Positions 1-59,662 of a stretch of DNA of 64,000 bases are shown here, in pieces. Below the pieces are notes generated by a model. It was not told the origin of the DNA. It worked only from the letters and a program-made list of their open reading frames with translations, and searched no databases. The DNA is from an uncultured Candidatus Binatia bacterium (GTDB lineage: Bacteria; Desulfobacterota; Binatia; UBA9968; JAJDTQ01). Positions within the stretch are counted from its first letter, which is position 1. Every line of letters starts with the position of its first letter. Made by a program: the position numbers and the translations under genes. The stretch covers positions 1,600,001-1,664,000 of the forward strand of contig OZ244070.1 in assembly GCA_965215605.1 (NCBI GenBank), given 5' to 3'.

Positions 1-437
1 TGGGGGTCTACGGCATCTACGATCTCCTCGACTGGTGGGAAGTGACCCAGGCGCGGCAGGACGACCCCGTGGGCGCGCTGATGGGCAGGACGCCGGCAGA
101 GGCGCCGGAGGACTACCGCCGGTTCTCGCCGCTGCAGGCAGTCGAGGCCGGGGGCGTGCCGCCGGGGGTCCCGTACCTCATCATCCACGGCGAGCAGGAC
201 CCCATCGTCCACCACAACCAGTCCGAGCGTTTCATCGCCGCGCTCCGGGCGGCCGGCGCCAAGGTGGAAACCCTCTTCGTCCCCAACGCCGGCCACTCGT
301 GGTTCACCTACCTTCCCAACGAGCCCGACCGCCGCCGCGTGGATCAGGAGCCCAACGTCACGGTGGCGCCGGTGCTGCTCGATTTCCTCGAGCGCAACCT
401 CTTGACCCGAGACAGGCTTTCAAAAGCGGCTACGTGA
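1..437 (+). CDS. alpha/beta hydrolase (esterase/S9-like), 5'-partial
   Basis: Frame is open from the window edge (GVYGIYDLLDWWEV...). C-terminal motifs LIIHGEQDPIV (catalytic Asp) and NAGHSW (catalytic His). Confidence 0.8.
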   Translation, partial: GVYGIYDLLDWWEVTQARQDDPVGALMGRTPAEAPEDYRRFSPLQAVEAGGVPPGVPYLIIHGEQDPIVHHNQSERFIAALRAAGAKVETLFVPNAGHSWFTYLPNEPDRRRVDQEPNVTVAPVLLDFLERNLLTRDRLSKAAT

Positions 438-514
438 AGCACGCCCTGCCCGTCATCCGGCACGCCGTGCAAGTAGCTCCAGGAAGTGTCCGAGCGGCGC
501 TGTGGCTGGCGATT

Positions 515-2689
515 TCAGGGGTTCTCTACGATCTCGAGGGCGGCGTCATCGAGGCCCAGCGATTCGAGCACGGGACCGAAGTACCCGGCGAAGGTGCCCG
601 TCACGGAACCTTCGACGATCAGACGCTGGTCGTCACCGCAACGGATAACGAGGGAATCCGCCAAGGGGCGCGACAAACGGTGGAAACGGACCTCGTGTTT
701 CAGGTAGGTGCTCGGCTCGCCGTCGTCTAGTGAAAGATCCATCCTCGGAACCTCCCCAACAACGACGCGGTCAGCGAACAGGAGCACCCAGCGCGCCCGC
801 GCGTTGCCGGACGACGCCTCGAACACCGCGACGGCCCGGGTCCGAACGTCCGACGTGACGACGCGGCCAGCCGGCGCAGGAAGTGCTCGTTCGCCGATCT
901 GCCGCAGGATAGCTGGCGCCGATCCTGGCGGGACAGTCGACAGCGTCCCGCACTTCAGGCGATCACGCAGCCGCGACTCCACCGCCTTGAGGTACTGCGC
1001 CCAGAGCGCGGCGACCTGCTTGCGCTCCGGGAGCAACACCGAAGCATTGAACAGCACCATATGGTCGTGTTCGACCGGCCAGTCCGCCGCAGCCTTCGTC
1101 GCCAGTAGATCGACGAAGGAGGCGATCAGTGGTTCGGCCAGGGGGTCTCCGACCAGATCGCGCGGGGGCTCGATCAAGTCTTGCTCACTCTCCGCGACGC
1201 GGTCGGATTCGAGGCCGCCATCGTCGAGGGCCACGGGCATCGCCTTCTCCAGCAGCACGCGGTTCACGCCGGCATCGCCGATACGCTTGCGCGCCGCCAC
1301 GGCGAACGCGCTGCCTTCGATCACCTGCTGCGCTTCTCCGATGTCGAGTCCACACCAATGGCGGGCAAGCATCGCGAGCAGAATGAATCCCTCCCCGATG
1401 CGTATCTCCTCGCGGCTGCCGCTGCCGATCAGATCAACCTGCAGACCGATAGACAGTTCCTTCTCCATTTCCTCTATCGCGTCGCTGGCCTTCGGCTCGT
1501 TCAATCCGCGCATGTCCCGCAGGGTCGCGCCGAGAGACTCGGCAATCGCCTGGCGTCGTGCGGGGGGCAGGGAGGTGAAGTCGACTGGCGGCGTCAGCGT
1601 GGAGTCCGGTTCACCATCGTCCGCAAGCGCGCGCAGCAGCGTCAACTTGGCGAACTCGTCCGGAATCTGGGCGCGCAGAATGCGGTCCAGCAGGACCTTG
1701 CGGTTGTGGTCGACGCCCGGAACCAGCTTGTGAATGCGAAGCGCCTCGACCAACCCCAGCCAGTCAGCGCTCCGATACGTGTGGCCCGGATCGTATGTGC
1801 GCGCCACCTGCAAATAGACCAGCGCTACGGAACCTTCCAGCAGTTCCTTCAGCCAGCCCTCGGCGTACGTCTTGATCACCTGTTTGCCGACCCGCGTCAA
1901 TGCCTCCCCGGCGAGAGTCGACGCTACCAGCGTGACCGGGTTCACACCGAGGGCAATGCGGCCGGCCAGCACCGCACCGCGCAGGTAATGCTGCCAAGGC
2001 GTGTACATCCGATAGAGGCGGCGAGCCTTCTGGACCCGTTCGAGCCACACCACGACTTCCCGAACCGTCCAACCGGTGACGTTGACGACCGGCACCTGCC
2101 GCGCCGCTTGCAGGAGCTCGCCGATGGCGGACCGGGCGGCGAGCGCGATGTCACCGATACGCGCATCCATCTCGGCCCTCTCGGCATCCTTCCCGTACAG
2201 GCGGGCGACTTCCTCCACGACATCGCGGACCTCGTCGAAAACGGCGCGGCCGTCGAGGCCCGCGATCTCCCCGTTTTCTTGCTTCACGTAGCGCCGGTCG
2301 CGGATGCCGTCCCAGACACGGTCGCAGCGGGCCTGGATCATCTTGCCGATCCGTTCGTCCAGTTCCGACGGCGGCCCGTCCGCTTCGGGGCCGTGCGACC
2401 GCTGGAGCGCGCTCCAGGCCAGCTCCGCCGGCGACACGCCCTCGGCCACCCAGCGTTCCTCGACCTCTTTCAAATCCTGCTCGCGCAGTTCGTTGATGTG
2501 CTGCTCCACCTCCGCGACGAGCCGTCGGTCCGCGGCAGCGGACCGCGCGAGACCCGCCGCGAAACCCAGCGCACCGATGCCGAGCAGGGTGACCGCTATC
2601 CCAACTTCTACCGAGAGCAGGATGAAGAGCGAAGCTCCGGAGATCAGGCTTCCGCATCCTGCGAGGAGCCAGCCGACGGACGCGTTCAT
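515..2689 (-). CDS. uncharacterised membrane-anchored protein (~724 aa)
   Basis: Real part of track ORF 515..3553, whose upstream portion overlaps the oxygenase gene. ATG at 2689 (TTG at 2698 possible). Two N-terminal hydrophobic helices, a long helical region and a beta-rich C-terminus. Family not recognised. Confidence 0.7.
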   Translation of the reverse strand: MNASVGWLLAGCGSLISGASLFILLSVEVGIAVTLLGIGALGFAAGLARSAAADRRLVAEVEQHINELREQDLKEVEERWVAEGVSPAELAWSALQRSHGPEADGPPSELDERIGKMIQARCDRVWDGIRDRRYVKQENGEIAGLDGRAVFDEVRDVVEEVARLYGKDAERAEMDARIGDIALAARSAIGELLQAARQVPVVNVTGWTVREVVVWLERVQKARRLYRMYTPWQHYLRGAVLAGRIALGVNPVTLVASTLAGEALTRVGKQVIKTYAEGWLKELLEGSVALVYLQVARTYDPGHTYRSADWLGLVEALRIHKLVPGVDHNRKVLLDRILRAQIPDEFAKLTLLRALADDGEPDSTLTPPVDFTSLPPARRQAIAESLGATLRDMRGLNEPKASDAIEEMEKELSIGLQVDLIGSGSREEIRIGEGFILLAMLARHWCGLDIGEAQQVIEGSAFAVAARKRIGDAGVNRVLLEKAMPVALDDGGLESDRVAESEQDLIEPPRDLVGDPLAEPLIASFVDLLATKAAADWPVEHDHMVLFNASVLLPERKQVAALWAQYLKAVESRLRDRLKCGTLSTVPPGSAPAILRQIGERALPAPAGRVVTSDVRTRAVAVFEASSGNARARWVLLFADRVVVGEVPRMDLSLDDGEPSTYLKHEVRFHRLSRPLADSLVIRCGDDQRLIVEGSVTGTFAGYFGPVLESLGLDDAALEIVENP

Positions 2690-2715
2690 TCGGAGCAATC
2701 GCGTGACGTCATCCT

Positions 2716-3642
2716 TCAGGGAGTGGTCCGCGAGTACTGGGAAGCGCGGCGCTGCCGGAGAAACTCTCCGGCCTCGATGGGCGGGAACTGCCGGGGACGG
2801 TGGTCGCCGCAACAGGAATCCATGCACCGGACCGTGATCTGGCTGTTGGGGTTGTAGAAGAAGACCGTGGAGTACCGCGACTGCTTGACTTCCGGGCCGG
2901 GTAAGGCCACGCGGTGCTTCGGCGACCGGTAGATGCCGTTGGTCCAGCGCGACAGCAGGTCCGCGACGTTGACCGTGACGGTGCCGGGTACCACCGGCAC
3001 CGTCAGCCAGCGGCCGTCCACAAAGGCCTCCAGTCCTTCCACCCCATCCTGAAAGACGAGGGTTACGGTGCCGTAGTCGGTGTGGCTCCCGGCCCGCAAC
3101 TGGCCGGCTCCGGGTTGATGCTCCACCGGCGGGTAGTGGAAGAAACGCGCCGTGCTGGCATGGGGCGCGTGCTTGTCCACGAAGAAATCCTCGGGCGCGT
3201 CCAGGGAGAGCGCCATGGCCTGGAGCAGCGCCGCGCACGCCCGCGCGCCGGCGTCGTGGAGGTCCAGGACCGTTTCGCGGAAACCGGGCACGGGGATGTG
3301 CCAGCGGTCCAGCAGCCCGAGGCTGGCCTGGTTCAGGCTGAAGGATTCCTTGAGGTCCCCCGGCTGTTGGGTGTCGAGGTGCTCGACGGCGACGCCGACG
3401 TAACCCGAGATCACGTCCAGGTCGGACCTGCCGATGGCTTCCTTGATCTCGCCGGGAAGGGCAAAGAATTCCCTGGCCCTGGCCGACACCCGTTCGAGCA
3501 ACCCTTCGGGCAACGGCAGGTTGGCGACGTTGAGGAAGCCGAACTCGGTGCACGCCGCGCGGACCTCCGCGGCCACGCGGCGGCGCGCAGCCGGAGCGCC
3601 ATTCATGAACGGTTCGAAGTCGATTTCGGGTATGATCGGCAC
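2716..3642 (-). CDS. 2-oxoglutarate/Fe(II)-dependent oxygenase, isopenicillin N synthase family
   Basis: N-terminal IPEIDF...ACTEFGF, HTDYG (HxD), distal His in KHRV, and RYS (RxS) 2OG-binding motif. The GTG start overlaps the upstream TAG. Confidence 0.9.
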   Translation of the reverse strand: MPIIPEIDFEPFMNGAPAARRRVAAEVRAACTEFGFLNVANLPLPEGLLERVSARAREFFALPGEIKEAIGRSDLDVISGYVGVAVEHLDTQQPGDLKESFSLNQASLGLLDRWHIPVPGFRETVLDLHDAGARACAALLQAMALSLDAPEDFFVDKHAPHASTARFFHYPPVEHQPGAGQLRAGSHTDYGTVTLVFQDGVEGLEAFVDGRWLTVPVVPGTVTVNVADLLSRWTNGIYRSPKHRVALPGPEVKQSRYSTVFFYNPNSQITVRCMDSCCGDHRPRQFPPIEAGEFLRQRRASQYSRTTP

Positions 3643-57117: not shown

Positions 57118-57284
57118 GATCGGTTCTTCAGTTTCTCCATGCCCGCAACATTATACCCCATCCGTCGCCGACCTGCGTGCCGATGGAGCGTTGGGCCACC
57201 GCCCGTCCAGAACGCCGTCCCACCACCCCCGCCCGTTATTCGCCTCTCCTGAAAAACTGTGTTAGATACCATCGTTGGAACGTC

Positions 57285-58343
57285 ATGATCCAAACTACCG
57301 ACGACCTCAGAATCGAGAATCTCCGTCCCTTGGTCCCTCCGATGATTGTCGTGGACGAAGAACTGCCGATTACCGAACAGGCCACGTCGACGGTGACTGC
57401 CGCCCGTCGCGCCATAACCGATATCATCAACGGCCGGGACCAACGACTCCTGGTCATCGCCGGCCCGTGCTCCATTCACGACCCGAAAGCCGCGCTTGAG
57501 TACGCCGGCCGGTTGAAGCGGGAGTCCGACCGCCTCGCCGACGACCTGCTCGTCATCATGCGTGTCTACTTCGAGAAACCCCGCACGACCGTGGGGTGGA
57601 AGGGCCTCATCAACGACCCGGACCTCGACGGCAGCTTCAACATCCACCAGGGGCTGCGGATCGCCCGGGGCCTGCTGCTCGATCTGGCGAACATGGGACT
57701 GGCGACGGGTTCGGAGTTCCTCGACACCATCACGCCGCAATTCACCGCCGACCTGATATCATGGGGCGCCATCGGCGCGCGCACGGCGGAAAGCCAAGTG
57801 CACCGCGAACTCGCTTCCGGGTTGTCCATGCCGGTGGGCTTCAAGAACGGCACCGGCGGTTCCATACAGATCGCCATCGATGGAGTGCGCGCCGCGTGCC
57901 ACCCGCACCACTTCCTCGGGGTTACCAGCCAGGGAATCGCCGCCATCATCTCCACGTCGGGGAACGAGAGCTGCCACGTCATCCTGCGAGGCTCCAACAA
58001 CGGCGCCAACTTCGACCAGGGCGTGGTTGACGACACCGCCCAAAAGCTGCGCGACGCCGAACTTCCACACCGCGTGCTCATCGACTGCAGCCACGGCAAC
58101 AGCCAAAAGGACTACCTGCGGCAGCCCCAGGTCTGCGCCGATGTATGCGAGCAGGTTGCCGCCGGTTCCGACAGCATCTGCGGCGTCATGATGGAGAGCC
58201 ACCTCGTGGCCGGCCGCCAGGACATCAAGCCCGACACCCCGCTCACCTACGGCCAGAGCGTCACCGACGCCTGCATCGACTGGGAAACCACCGTGCCGAT
58301 GCTCGAGGACCTGGCCCGGGCCGCGGCCATGCGGCGGTCCTGA
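57285..58343 (+). CDS. 3-deoxy-7-phosphoheptulonate (DAHP) synthase, class I-alpha (AroF/G/H type)
   Basis: GPCSIHD, KPRTTVGWKG, IGART.ESQVHRE, DCSHGNS, SVTDACI; ATG at 57285. Confidence 0.95.
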   Translation: MIQTTDDLRIENLRPLVPPMIVVDEELPITEQATSTVTAARRAITDIINGRDQRLLVIAGPCSIHDPKAALEYAGRLKRESDRLADDLLVIMRVYFEKPRTTVGWKGLINDPDLDGSFNIHQGLRIARGLLLDLANMGLATGSEFLDTITPQFTADLISWGAIGARTAESQVHRELASGLSMPVGFKNGTGGSIQIAIDGVRAACHPHHFLGVTSQGIAAIISTSGNESCHVILRGSNNGANFDQGVVDDTAQKLRDAELPHRVLIDCSHGNSQKDYLRQPQVCADVCEQVAAGSDSICGVMMESHLVAGRQDIKPDTPLTYGQSVTDACIDWETTVPMLEDLARAAAMRRS

Positions 58344-58368
58344 ACGGTCCGACCCGGGCGTTGCGCCC

Positions 58369-58570
58369 TAGTGTCCTGTCCCACGTAGTTCTTTACCAAT
58401 CTGCCGGTCTGTCTTGTGGCCGGCTCATTGCTCCTGCCCGCGCGTTTCCGGACGACGCCTCGAACACCGCGACGGCCCGGGTCCGAACGTCCGAGGTGCC
58501 GACGCGACCTGCCGGCGCAGGGAGTTCCTGGGCGCCGACCTGCCGCAAAATTACGTGGGACAGGACACTA
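58369..58570. mobile_element. MITE-like non-autonomous element with captured gene fragment
   Basis: Perfect 19-bp inverted ends TAGTGTCCTGTCCCACGTA at 58369-58387 and 58552-58570 (17-bp TIR plus duplicated TA). No transposase. Interior 58436-58547 matches 795-906. Confidence 0.8.
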
Positions 58571-59662
58571 TAGCTCCACGGCGCGCCCTTGCGCCGACGA
58601 CGCCGCGATGGCGTCGATGAGCCGGTGCAAGTCCACGGCGGTGTTGAAATCGGGTTCGCAGCCGGTGCCGTTGCGGATGGCGCCGGCAAATCTCACGTAC
58701 ATTTCGCCGACGTTCCTGGGCTCCTTCTCCGGCGTTTCCGCCGGCGCGGTCACGTACTCGGCCGGCACCTCCAGCTCCTCGAGGCCGGACCCGCCGGCCT
58801 TGACTCCCTGAAGACGTACGGCCAGGAGTTGCGGGGTGTTGCCGGAGGAGGCCACCAGCGTGCCCTCCCGGCCGTAGATCTCCATGCGGTAGCCGGCCGC
58901 GCTCCAGGGTACGGCGGCCACGTAGACCGAGGCCACGGCACCGTTGGCCAACCGCCCGCTCACGAGCACGTTGTCCGGGGCGTCGACGTCGACGTAGCGC
59001 TGCGTGTCGGTCTCGAACCACTGGCGCGCCTGGGTGCTCACCACGGCGGAAACGGAGCTGAAATCGCCCACGATGAAGCGCAGCGCATCGATGGTATGAC
59101 CGCCCGGGATATTCAAGGTGCTGGCGCCCAAGGAACCGTCCCTCTGCCAAGTCCGGTCCGAGGGCCGTTCCAGCACGCCGCCCCGCGCCACGCTCACGTG
59201 GCACGCCATGACCTCGCCCACGTAGCCGTCCGCCACCAGGTCCCTGGCATACCGGATCGAGGGGTTCGCCCGGGCCTGCAAGCCAACCATGTGCCGGAGC
59301 CCCTTGGCCTCGGCGAGATCACGCATCGCCACGGCCTCCGCGCCGGTCTTTCCCAGAGGCCACTCCGTGAACACGTGCTTGCCGGCGTTGAGCGCGTCCA
59401 TCGTCACGTGATAGTGGTTCGGCACCACCAACACCACCGCCACCGCCTCGATATCGGGACAGGCCAGCAGTTCGCGGTAGTCATGGAACGCCATCCTTGC
59501 ACCGTACTTCTCAGCCGACGCCTCGGCGCTCTCCTTGCGCGTGGTGCACACCGCCGTCAACTCCACGTCGCGGCTTGCGACAATGGCGGGAAGGTGCGCC
59601 CTGGGACCCCATCCACGGGTAGGATTCGCGCCGATGACGCCCAACCTTATCTTTTCGGCCAT
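58568..59662 (-). CDS. Gfo/Idh/MocA family oxidoreductase
   Basis: LGVIGA Rossmann start, GKHVFTEWPLG, GHTID. Confidence 0.92.
   Translation of the reverse strand: MAEKIRLGVIGANPTRGWGPRAHLPAIVASRDVELTAVCTTRKESAEASAEKYGARMAFHDYRELLACPDIEAVAVVLVVPNHYHVTMDALNAGKHVFTEWPLGKTGAEAVAMRDLAEAKGLRHMVGLQARANPSIRYARDLVADGYVGEVMACHVSVARGGVLERPSDRTWQRDGSLGASTLNIPGGHTIDALRFIVGDFSSVSAVVSTQARQWFETDTQRYVDVDAPDNVLVSGRLANGAVASVYVAAVPWSAAGYRMEIYGREGTLVASSGNTPQLLAVRLQGVKAGGSGLEELEVPAEYVTAPAETPEKEPRNVGEMYVRFAGAIRNGTGCEPDFNTAVDLHRLIDAIAASSAQGRAVEL

Follow-up and report, generated by a model that had tools for sequence, protein, structure and literature searches.

The intergenic region between a DAHP synthase gene and a GFO/IDH/MocA-type oxidoreductase gene of an uncultured Binatia bacterium harbors a 202-bp unit, in which a piece of a protein-coding gene is enclosed by transposon-like ends. 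This raises the question whether the unit is a small mobile element that captured a passenger from another locus, as an earlier note based on the sequence had proposed, or whether the gene piece is a remnant of a gene that once stood at this very site. In the following, the window is the whole analyzed stretch of DNA (64,000 nt), and positions refer to it unless they are preceded by a contig name. The features of relevance are:

57177-58343, plus strand: DAHP synthase gene (Pfam DAHP_synth_1, E = 2.5e-92), left neighbour, convergent with the unit
58369-58387, plus strand: left MITE end, consisting of the TA target dinucleotide (58369-58370) and a 17-nt terminal inverted repeat
58388-58443, plus strand: left MITE arm, which contains a hairpin at 58403-58424
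58436-58547, minus strand: gene remnant, an internal piece of 112 bp (37 codons) corresponding to gene coordinates 1784-1895 of the 724-aa gene
58549-58570, plus strand: right MITE end, 20 nt plus TA, identical to canonical copies at 22/22 positions
58568-59662, minus strand: GFO/IDH/MocA-type oxidoreductase gene (Pfam PF01408, PF22725 and PF02894), right neighbour
515-2689, minus strand: intact 724-aa gene, the second copy; the inserted segment corresponds approximately to window 415-2736

The positions 58369-58387 and 58552-58570 form a perfect inverted repeat (19/19), which reaches 22 nt if one mismatch is allowed; a 19-nt inverted repeat was found in none of 100 dinucleotide-preserving shuffles of the window. 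With its 202 bp the unit is too short for a transposase. Thus, size, ends and lack of a transposase are as the earlier note had described them. The hairpin GCCGGTC/GGCCGGC at 58403-58424 is also present in the sequence, its pairing being predicted. The last approximately 8 nt of the left arm (CCCGCGCG) are a microhomology that overlaps the gene remnant. At the other side, the C at 58568 together with the TA is the stop codon of the oxidoreductase gene (TAG on the minus strand), which is preserved by the first base of the MITE end. The remnant (58436-58547) can be aligned to window 795-906 in the same orientation and without gaps at 100/112 positions (89.3%), including a perfect run of 47 nt, and these two sites are the only copies of the 112-bp segment in the 4.06-Mb genome. 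Among the 12 differences to the local gene, five are located in three adjacent codons, while five of the other seven are synonymous changes at third positions. Both the match and this codon pattern, which we re-read from the sequences, had been reported before and were reproduced.

The genome is a MAG with an estimated contamination of 5.7%, and the earlier note had named a chimeric assembly as one way in which such a unit could arise. However, a short-read contig of 2720 nt (X1, public runs) spans 58265-59100 with 0 differences over the unit, and in a second sample of the same study (X2) three tiling contigs cover the same region, again with 0 differences over the unit. Since the short-read contigs cover the unit without a single difference, and the flanks are syntenic with those of relatives, we consider the probability of an assembly chimera to be negligible. 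The unit is a real structure. X1 may be the sample from which the genome was obtained. Two further contigs from one sample (X4 record 21, 2932 nt, and X2 record 13, 1320 nt) end on 58436-58494 with one difference. They may stem from a full gene with a relic-like allele in a co-occurring strain; this match says little, because no other part of the gene is as conserved as 58436-58494.

The genome contains 12 occurrences of the 19-mer end if up to two mismatches are allowed, seven of them being perfect, and complete 163-bp units with such ends are located at C1:1361374-1361536 and C1:3664652-3664814. A 14-nt core of the end has 95 matches in the genome at up to two mismatches, compared to 17 for the reversed control. 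These matches always adjoin a TA and represent several subfamilies of approximately 163 bp. At least four MITE subfamilies of this length exist in the genome under study (G000; examples are C1:2246675-2246837, C1:2628971-2629133, C1:3282111-3282273, C1:3454501-3454663 and C1:1813865-1814028). They have the outermost nucleotides, TA followed by GTGTCCTGTCC, in common and differ in the inner sequence. When 28 genomes of the genus were searched for perfect-ended copies with gaps of 105-165 nt, 29 canonical copies with perfect 17-nt ends, a length of 158-160 bp (approximately 163 bp including the TAs) and one common interior were detected in 9 of the 28 genomes, two of the 29 copies being in G000. 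All copies of the family are flanked by TA. The arm of the unit can be aligned to the canonical left half over approximately 75-80 nt (84% identity over unit positions 1-74) and its right end over 22 nt, whereas 112 bp stand in for the remainder of the canonical copy. The unit is a copy of this IS630/Tc1-mariner-type MITE family, inserted at the TA that forms part of the oxidoreductase stop codon, and the earlier assumption of an IS-derived MITE holds. The family is a new sequence family of the IS630 type, and together with its subfamilies it represents a new MITE superfamily in an uncultured lineage; a narrow literature search for MITEs of Binatia yielded one unrelated match only.

A family of elements with constant ends and variable gene-derived inserts, as envisaged in the earlier note, is not what we found. 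The 29 canonical copies have one interior, and the larger-spaced copies (180-198 bp) are five in number: the unit itself and four copies in G018 and G019, which contain a small palindromic insert of approximately 20 nt. Foreign DNA was detected neither in the other perfect-ended copies with gaps of 105-165 nt in the 28 genomes nor at the solo ends in G000. The latter are common in this genome and correspond to truncated or internally deleted MITE copies, among them internally deleted mini-copies of, for example, 46 nt and 65 nt. A short GC-rich palindrome of the GGGGCGACC..GGTCGCCCC type is nested in the MITE copies L033, L034, L036 and L037 of G018 and G019, which are the 180-184-bp variants. 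It is also present in intergenic sequences near the in-place gene in several genomes (L053, L094, L070 and L073) and looks like a separate, REP-like small repeat.

G000 also contains three IS630-family elements with an identical block of 1155 bp, a DDE_3 domain, a 370-aa frame and TA flanks (C1:3383740-3384898, L102; near C1:2216294, L101; near C1:1260847 on the minus strand, L100). The identity of the copies suggests recent activity. Their ends start with GTATCCTGTCC, in comparison to GTGTCCTGTCC in the MITE; 10 of the first 11 nt are common, and the sequences diverge further in. A transposase-bearing partner with the full MITE end was not found in G000. For the autonomous IS with the same terminal inverted repeats, for which the earlier note had suggested to search, the TA-flanked IS630-family elements are candidates, the similarity of which to the ends of the unit is limited to the outer 11 nt.

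Most informative for the origin of the gene piece is the same locus in related genomes. Using window 57900-59000 as query against 27 other genomes of the genus, a homologue of the 112 bp was found between the matches of the DAHP synthase and the oxidoreductase gene, in the same orientation, in 11 of them (G014, G022, G024, G004, G016, G007, G018, G008, G020, G009 and G043). In G014, the stretch from the equivalent of 58369 to that of 58558 is occupied by the equivalent of window 503-2733, which comprises the whole 724-aa gene. In the relatives, the oxidoreductase gene immediately precedes the 724-aa gene in the same orientation, and a contig of run X5 from another study has the same layout, with 338 nt between the equivalents of 58369 and 58436. 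At the identical TA position, worn left MITE ends are present in G019 (approximately 110 nt), G024 (63 nt), and, with intermediate length, in G016 and G043. Only an inner part of the left end is found in G008, G020 and G042, and only its first 5-8 nt in G022 and G004. These worn ends follow the stop codon of the DAHP synthase gene at its 3' side and directly adjoin the 724-aa gene at its stop codon. On the opposite side of the gene, directly before the oxidoreductase stop codon, a worn right end can be recognized in relatives by 12/19 matches anchored at the TA (binomial p ~0.001).

An empty site, for which the earlier note had suggested to look in sister strains, exists in G013, in which both flanks meet at a single TA. 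In the DAHP synthase tree this genome forms the outgroup on a long branch, and with the query used a homologue of the 724-aa gene was not found in it. The ancestral state of the locus was polarized as far as G013 only; in another family of the order, seven loci contain an oxidoreductase homologue with 45-49% identity, and none of them has a DAHP synthase gene within 1.5 kb on either side. In G042 and G019, the locus contains 3'-truncated copies of the gene, with deletions starting in the MITE remnant, and these genomes have no other copy. Decay at the DAHP synthase/oxidoreductase locus recurs across the genus.

Based on this comparison, the 112 bp are very probably an in-place relic of a resident gene which was deleted between the MITE ends, and not a captured passenger. 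The presence of the whole gene in this very interval and in this orientation in sister genomes contradicts the proposed capture, in which a Pack-MITE or mobile cassette would have acquired the gene piece elsewhere, possibly to serve as a template for an antisense or guide function. Perfect ends, TA flanks and a piece of a diverged allele between them do agree with such a capture. However, the piece is located at the ancestral locus of its own gene, in the ancestral orientation and order, the unit is single-copy in its own genome as well as in the 28 genomes of the genus and the 41 genomes searched, and foreign DNA is present in no other member of the family. A full-length match to the 202 bp was absent from the 40 other genomes searched, and a junction-specific 24-mer was found at up to three mismatches in one of the 28 genus genomes. 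A capture from elsewhere is in our opinion highly improbable, and the outcome which the earlier note itself had opposed to it, a one-off deletion scar between IS-type ends, is the one supported here. The reading as a bacterial Pack-MITE or guide cassette is tempting but very probably wrong, and it can be tested by inspecting the same locus in sister genomes. What the locus offers instead is a clean example of a gene relic kept between transposon ends.

The antisense or guide role was considered since, by orientation, read-through from the DAHP synthase gene would yield RNA antisense to the 724-aa gene. This also would suit a capture, which is however disfavoured by the lack of a promoter, a terminator and an RNA family: a simple promoter and terminator scan, which does not cover promoters of this lineage, gave 0 sites, and the search in Rfam revealed no family, its sole match being a snoRNA model outside the unit (E = 0.12, far below the threshold). 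The predicted RNA fold has a z-score of -3.1. This value is driven by the stem of the inverted ends, and we do not take it as evidence of a functional RNA. Most likely, the unit has no function of its own.

How could the in-place relic have arisen? We propose that the two ends of an old MITE once enclosed the whole 724-aa gene, as is the case in most species of the genus. Given a second complete copy at a distance of 55.6 kb, the enclosed copy would have become redundant and would then have been deleted. In total, approximately 2.1 kb of the resident copy would have been lost; measured against G014, approximately 0.27 kb (272 nt) would be missing on the side of the relic that faces the arm, and approximately 1.86 kb (1861 nt) on the side that faces the right end. 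The left junction is located in a CGCGCG-type stretch that is common to arm and gene, while one to three bases are shared at the right junction. Based on these short homologies at both junctions, we infer that the deletion could have occurred by two slippage or microhomology-mediated events, or by one template-switching event. Two deletions that spare exactly both ends and an island of 112 bp need a coincidence or a single complex event, and in this respect the unit does not fit simple decay within the lineage.

The second copy is located at a new site. The intact gene lies 55.6 kb from the unit in an inserted segment of approximately 2.3 kb, the flanks of which (window 1-409 and 2735 onward) are only 3-126 bp apart in G022, G024, G004 and G007, and 3.5 kb apart in G014. 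No inverted ends were detected at the borders of this copy, and for window 396-484, a stretch of approximately 85 nt that borders the relocated gene on its 3' side, no homologue was found in the 28 genus genomes. Since the intact copy retains its own 795-906 region, the relic cannot be the leftover of a cut-and-paste move, and two copies of the gene must have co-existed. The insertion also lengthens the frame of the neighbouring gene, which ends at a new stop at 437.

The suggestion that the source of the gene piece was a diverged coding allele rather than a decaying local copy was confirmed. The allele nearest to the relic is the ortholog in G004 (105/112 identical positions, 94%; seven of 112 sites differ), while 11 of 112 sites differ from G014, G022 and G007, and 12 of 112 from the local copy. 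The latter differs from G014 at four of 112 sites. In the tree, the local intact copy forms a clade with G014, G022 and G024 (100/98), outside of which the relic is placed. An AU test rejected the relic and the local copy as sisters (p = 0.004), and did not reject a grouping of the relic with the whole clade of the local copy (p = 0.18). The flanks of the unit, in turn, are G014/G022-like, with 93-100% identity in 100-nt windows, and in the DAHP synthase tree G000 belongs to a 100/100 clade with G014, G022, G016 and G024, each of which retains the complete gene at this locus. An allele from outside the local clade between flanks of the local type does not fit simple decay within the lineage.

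Exchange of the segment between the flanking genes may resolve this mismatch. That this segment is exchanged between lineages is shown by G016, the DAHP synthase gene of which groups with G000, whereas its 724-aa allele groups with G008, G018 and G012. Further, one junction between MITE remnant and stop codon is common to G016, G020 and G008. Because the segment was exchanged in G016, it is plausible, as an addition to the deletion account, that homologous recombination imported the relic or replaced the resident allele. In its most explicit form, the unit would have been formed at the same locus in an unsampled relative with good ends and a G004-like allele, and would then have replaced the resident gene through recombination in the flanking genes, which is compatible with a deletion between MITE ends. 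Such an origin would explain a relic allele foreign to the local clade and ends unlike the worn ones of the closest relatives, and the exchange in G016 and the common junction are in line with it. However, no foreign patch is seen in the adjoining 100-nt windows, with 93% identity to G014/G022 on both sides, and no donor was found in the 27 genus genomes or in two metagenome scans (one with flank plus left end, the other with a relic-specific 29-mer; no match in either). Therefore, we regard an imported deletion allele as possible, but rather doubtful.

A second observation that does not fit simple in-lineage decay is the age structure of the MITE portion itself. The ends of the unit have 1 mismatch to the family consensus in 54 positions, the arm interior (unit positions 35-76, compared with the consensus of eight canonical copies) 11 in 42 (Fisher p = 0.0004). 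In the closest relatives, the ends at this site are worn. A 24-mer from the interior had no match elsewhere in the genus at up to three mismatches. As candidate explanations for young-looking ends around an old interior, a MITE may have inserted later at the flanking TA, with the tandem arms recombining thereafter, the unit may have been imported from a lineage with good ends, or transposase-linked selection may have continued to act on the ends. The pristine state of the ends around an old interior bears on the question how MITE ends are maintained. We also considered the arm of the unit and the remnant in G019 as orthologs based on shared derived characters; this was dropped, since the number of states which the arm shares with remnants, read from the sequences, is approximately five for each pair and the pattern is thus star-like. 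Four of the 11 differences of the arm from the consensus perfect the GCCGGTC/GGCCGGC hairpin. This could be due to chance, or a structure behind the DAHP synthase gene could be under selection.

Intact ends around a lost interior are known from eukaryotic transposons. In Ac/Ds and P elements, interrupted gap repair leads to internal deletions with filler DNA; to our knowledge, this process is known from eukaryotes and not from bacterial IS630-type elements. The unit resembles such derivatives in that its ends are kept, its interior is lost, its junctions have short homology and an island of nearby sequence is retained, and by analogy a gap-repair-type origin may be considered. In this scenario, a 2.4-kb unit comprising the ends and the gene would have been cut by an IS630-type transposase and the gap refilled from the sister chromosome, until synthesis broke off and two template switches left both ends, an arm of 80 nt and the 112-nt island. 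It is a variant of the deletion account that differs in mechanism alone. Both ends being intact to the last base, the homologies at the junctions, the three identical and probably recently active IS630-family copies and the existence of the 46-nt and 65-nt mini-copies are in agreement with abortive gap repair. At the other hand, the intact gene at the new site has no inverted ends and so did not move as such a unit, the transposase-bearing element matches the subfamily ends of the unit only in the first 11 nt, and the worn ends of the relatives should be hardly usable by a transposase. Taken together, abortive gap repair appears unlikely.

In a more far-reaching reading, the gene perhaps was an end-bounded cassette, since the worn ends sit at TAs that are adjacent in G013, in which the gene was not found. 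It could have entered the locus as such a cassette or become one there, and the unit would then be a still mobilizable chimeric MITE, an unspread Pack-MITE at its birthplace, the pristine ends of which would have been kept or renewed by transposase-linked processes. We judge this to be quite improbable.

The in-place deletion scar can be compared to several known systems. Bacterial MITEs moved by IS630-family transposases include RUP of Streptococcus pneumoniae with IS630-Spn1, and Correia/NEMIS of Neisseria (PMC2229807). The unit and its family are similar to them in having inverted ends with TA termini, a TA target duplication, a length of approximately 100-200 bp and no coding capacity, in being present in many, mostly intergenic copies, and in transcripts predicted to fold into a long stem; a candidate IS630-family partner exists in the same genome. 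What sets the unit apart from RUP and Correia/NEMIS is that it belongs to a new sequence family, that its middle is replaced by a gene remnant and that the candidate partner shares only the outer 11 nt.

Mobile insertion cassettes (MICs), of which MIC231 of Bacillus cereus reportedly is one, are the second system of comparison. They consist of IS ends around passenger genes without a transposase, as exemplified by a qnrS2 cassette on an Aeromonas plasmid (PMC5444012). The unit is MIC-like in that two IS-type ends surround non-transposon DNA, and in the sister genomes even a whole gene is located between worn ends. However, mobility is a defining property of MICs and their passenger genes are intact, while the unit retains 37 of 724 codons, is present in one copy and resides at the ancestral locus. 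Also unlike a MIC, the intact 724-aa gene at the new site is devoid of such ends. In plants, Pack-MULEs and Pack-MITE-like elements take up gene fragments from other loci and amplify them. The unit shares with Pack-MULEs the gene fragment between transposon ends, whereas acquisition elsewhere and amplification fail. Thus, for each tested defining feature of a cargo-carrying element (origin of the cargo, spread, varying inserts) the unit fails.

The 724-aa protein had no match in Pfam, NCBIfam or PADLOC, and in the protein atlas it resembles only clusters of hypothetical proteins. According to its sequence, the first approximately 50 residues look like a membrane segment. The gene is found in at least four genomic contexts in the genus (L050 in G011, L058 in G006, L059 in G012 and L054 in G001). 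In G012 it adjoins a frame that, by eye, we read as a putative IS3-like transposase. The borders of homology vary between the contexts and are without inverted ends. The gene behaves as an often moved and eroded accessory gene, and at the MITE-marked site described here it was repeatedly moved, exchanged and eroded. An extra relic of 55 C-terminal codons is present in G015 (C118:25620-25781), elsewhere than at this locus. Finally, in window 515-1300 (5' third of the gene, minus strand, gene coordinates 1-800), identity between the local intact copy and each of the other alleles is as low as 79-90%, while G014 and G022 are 94-98% identical to each other over the same gene coordinates. The divergence of the local copy in these first 800 nt could reflect fast change after relocation or a mosaic origin.
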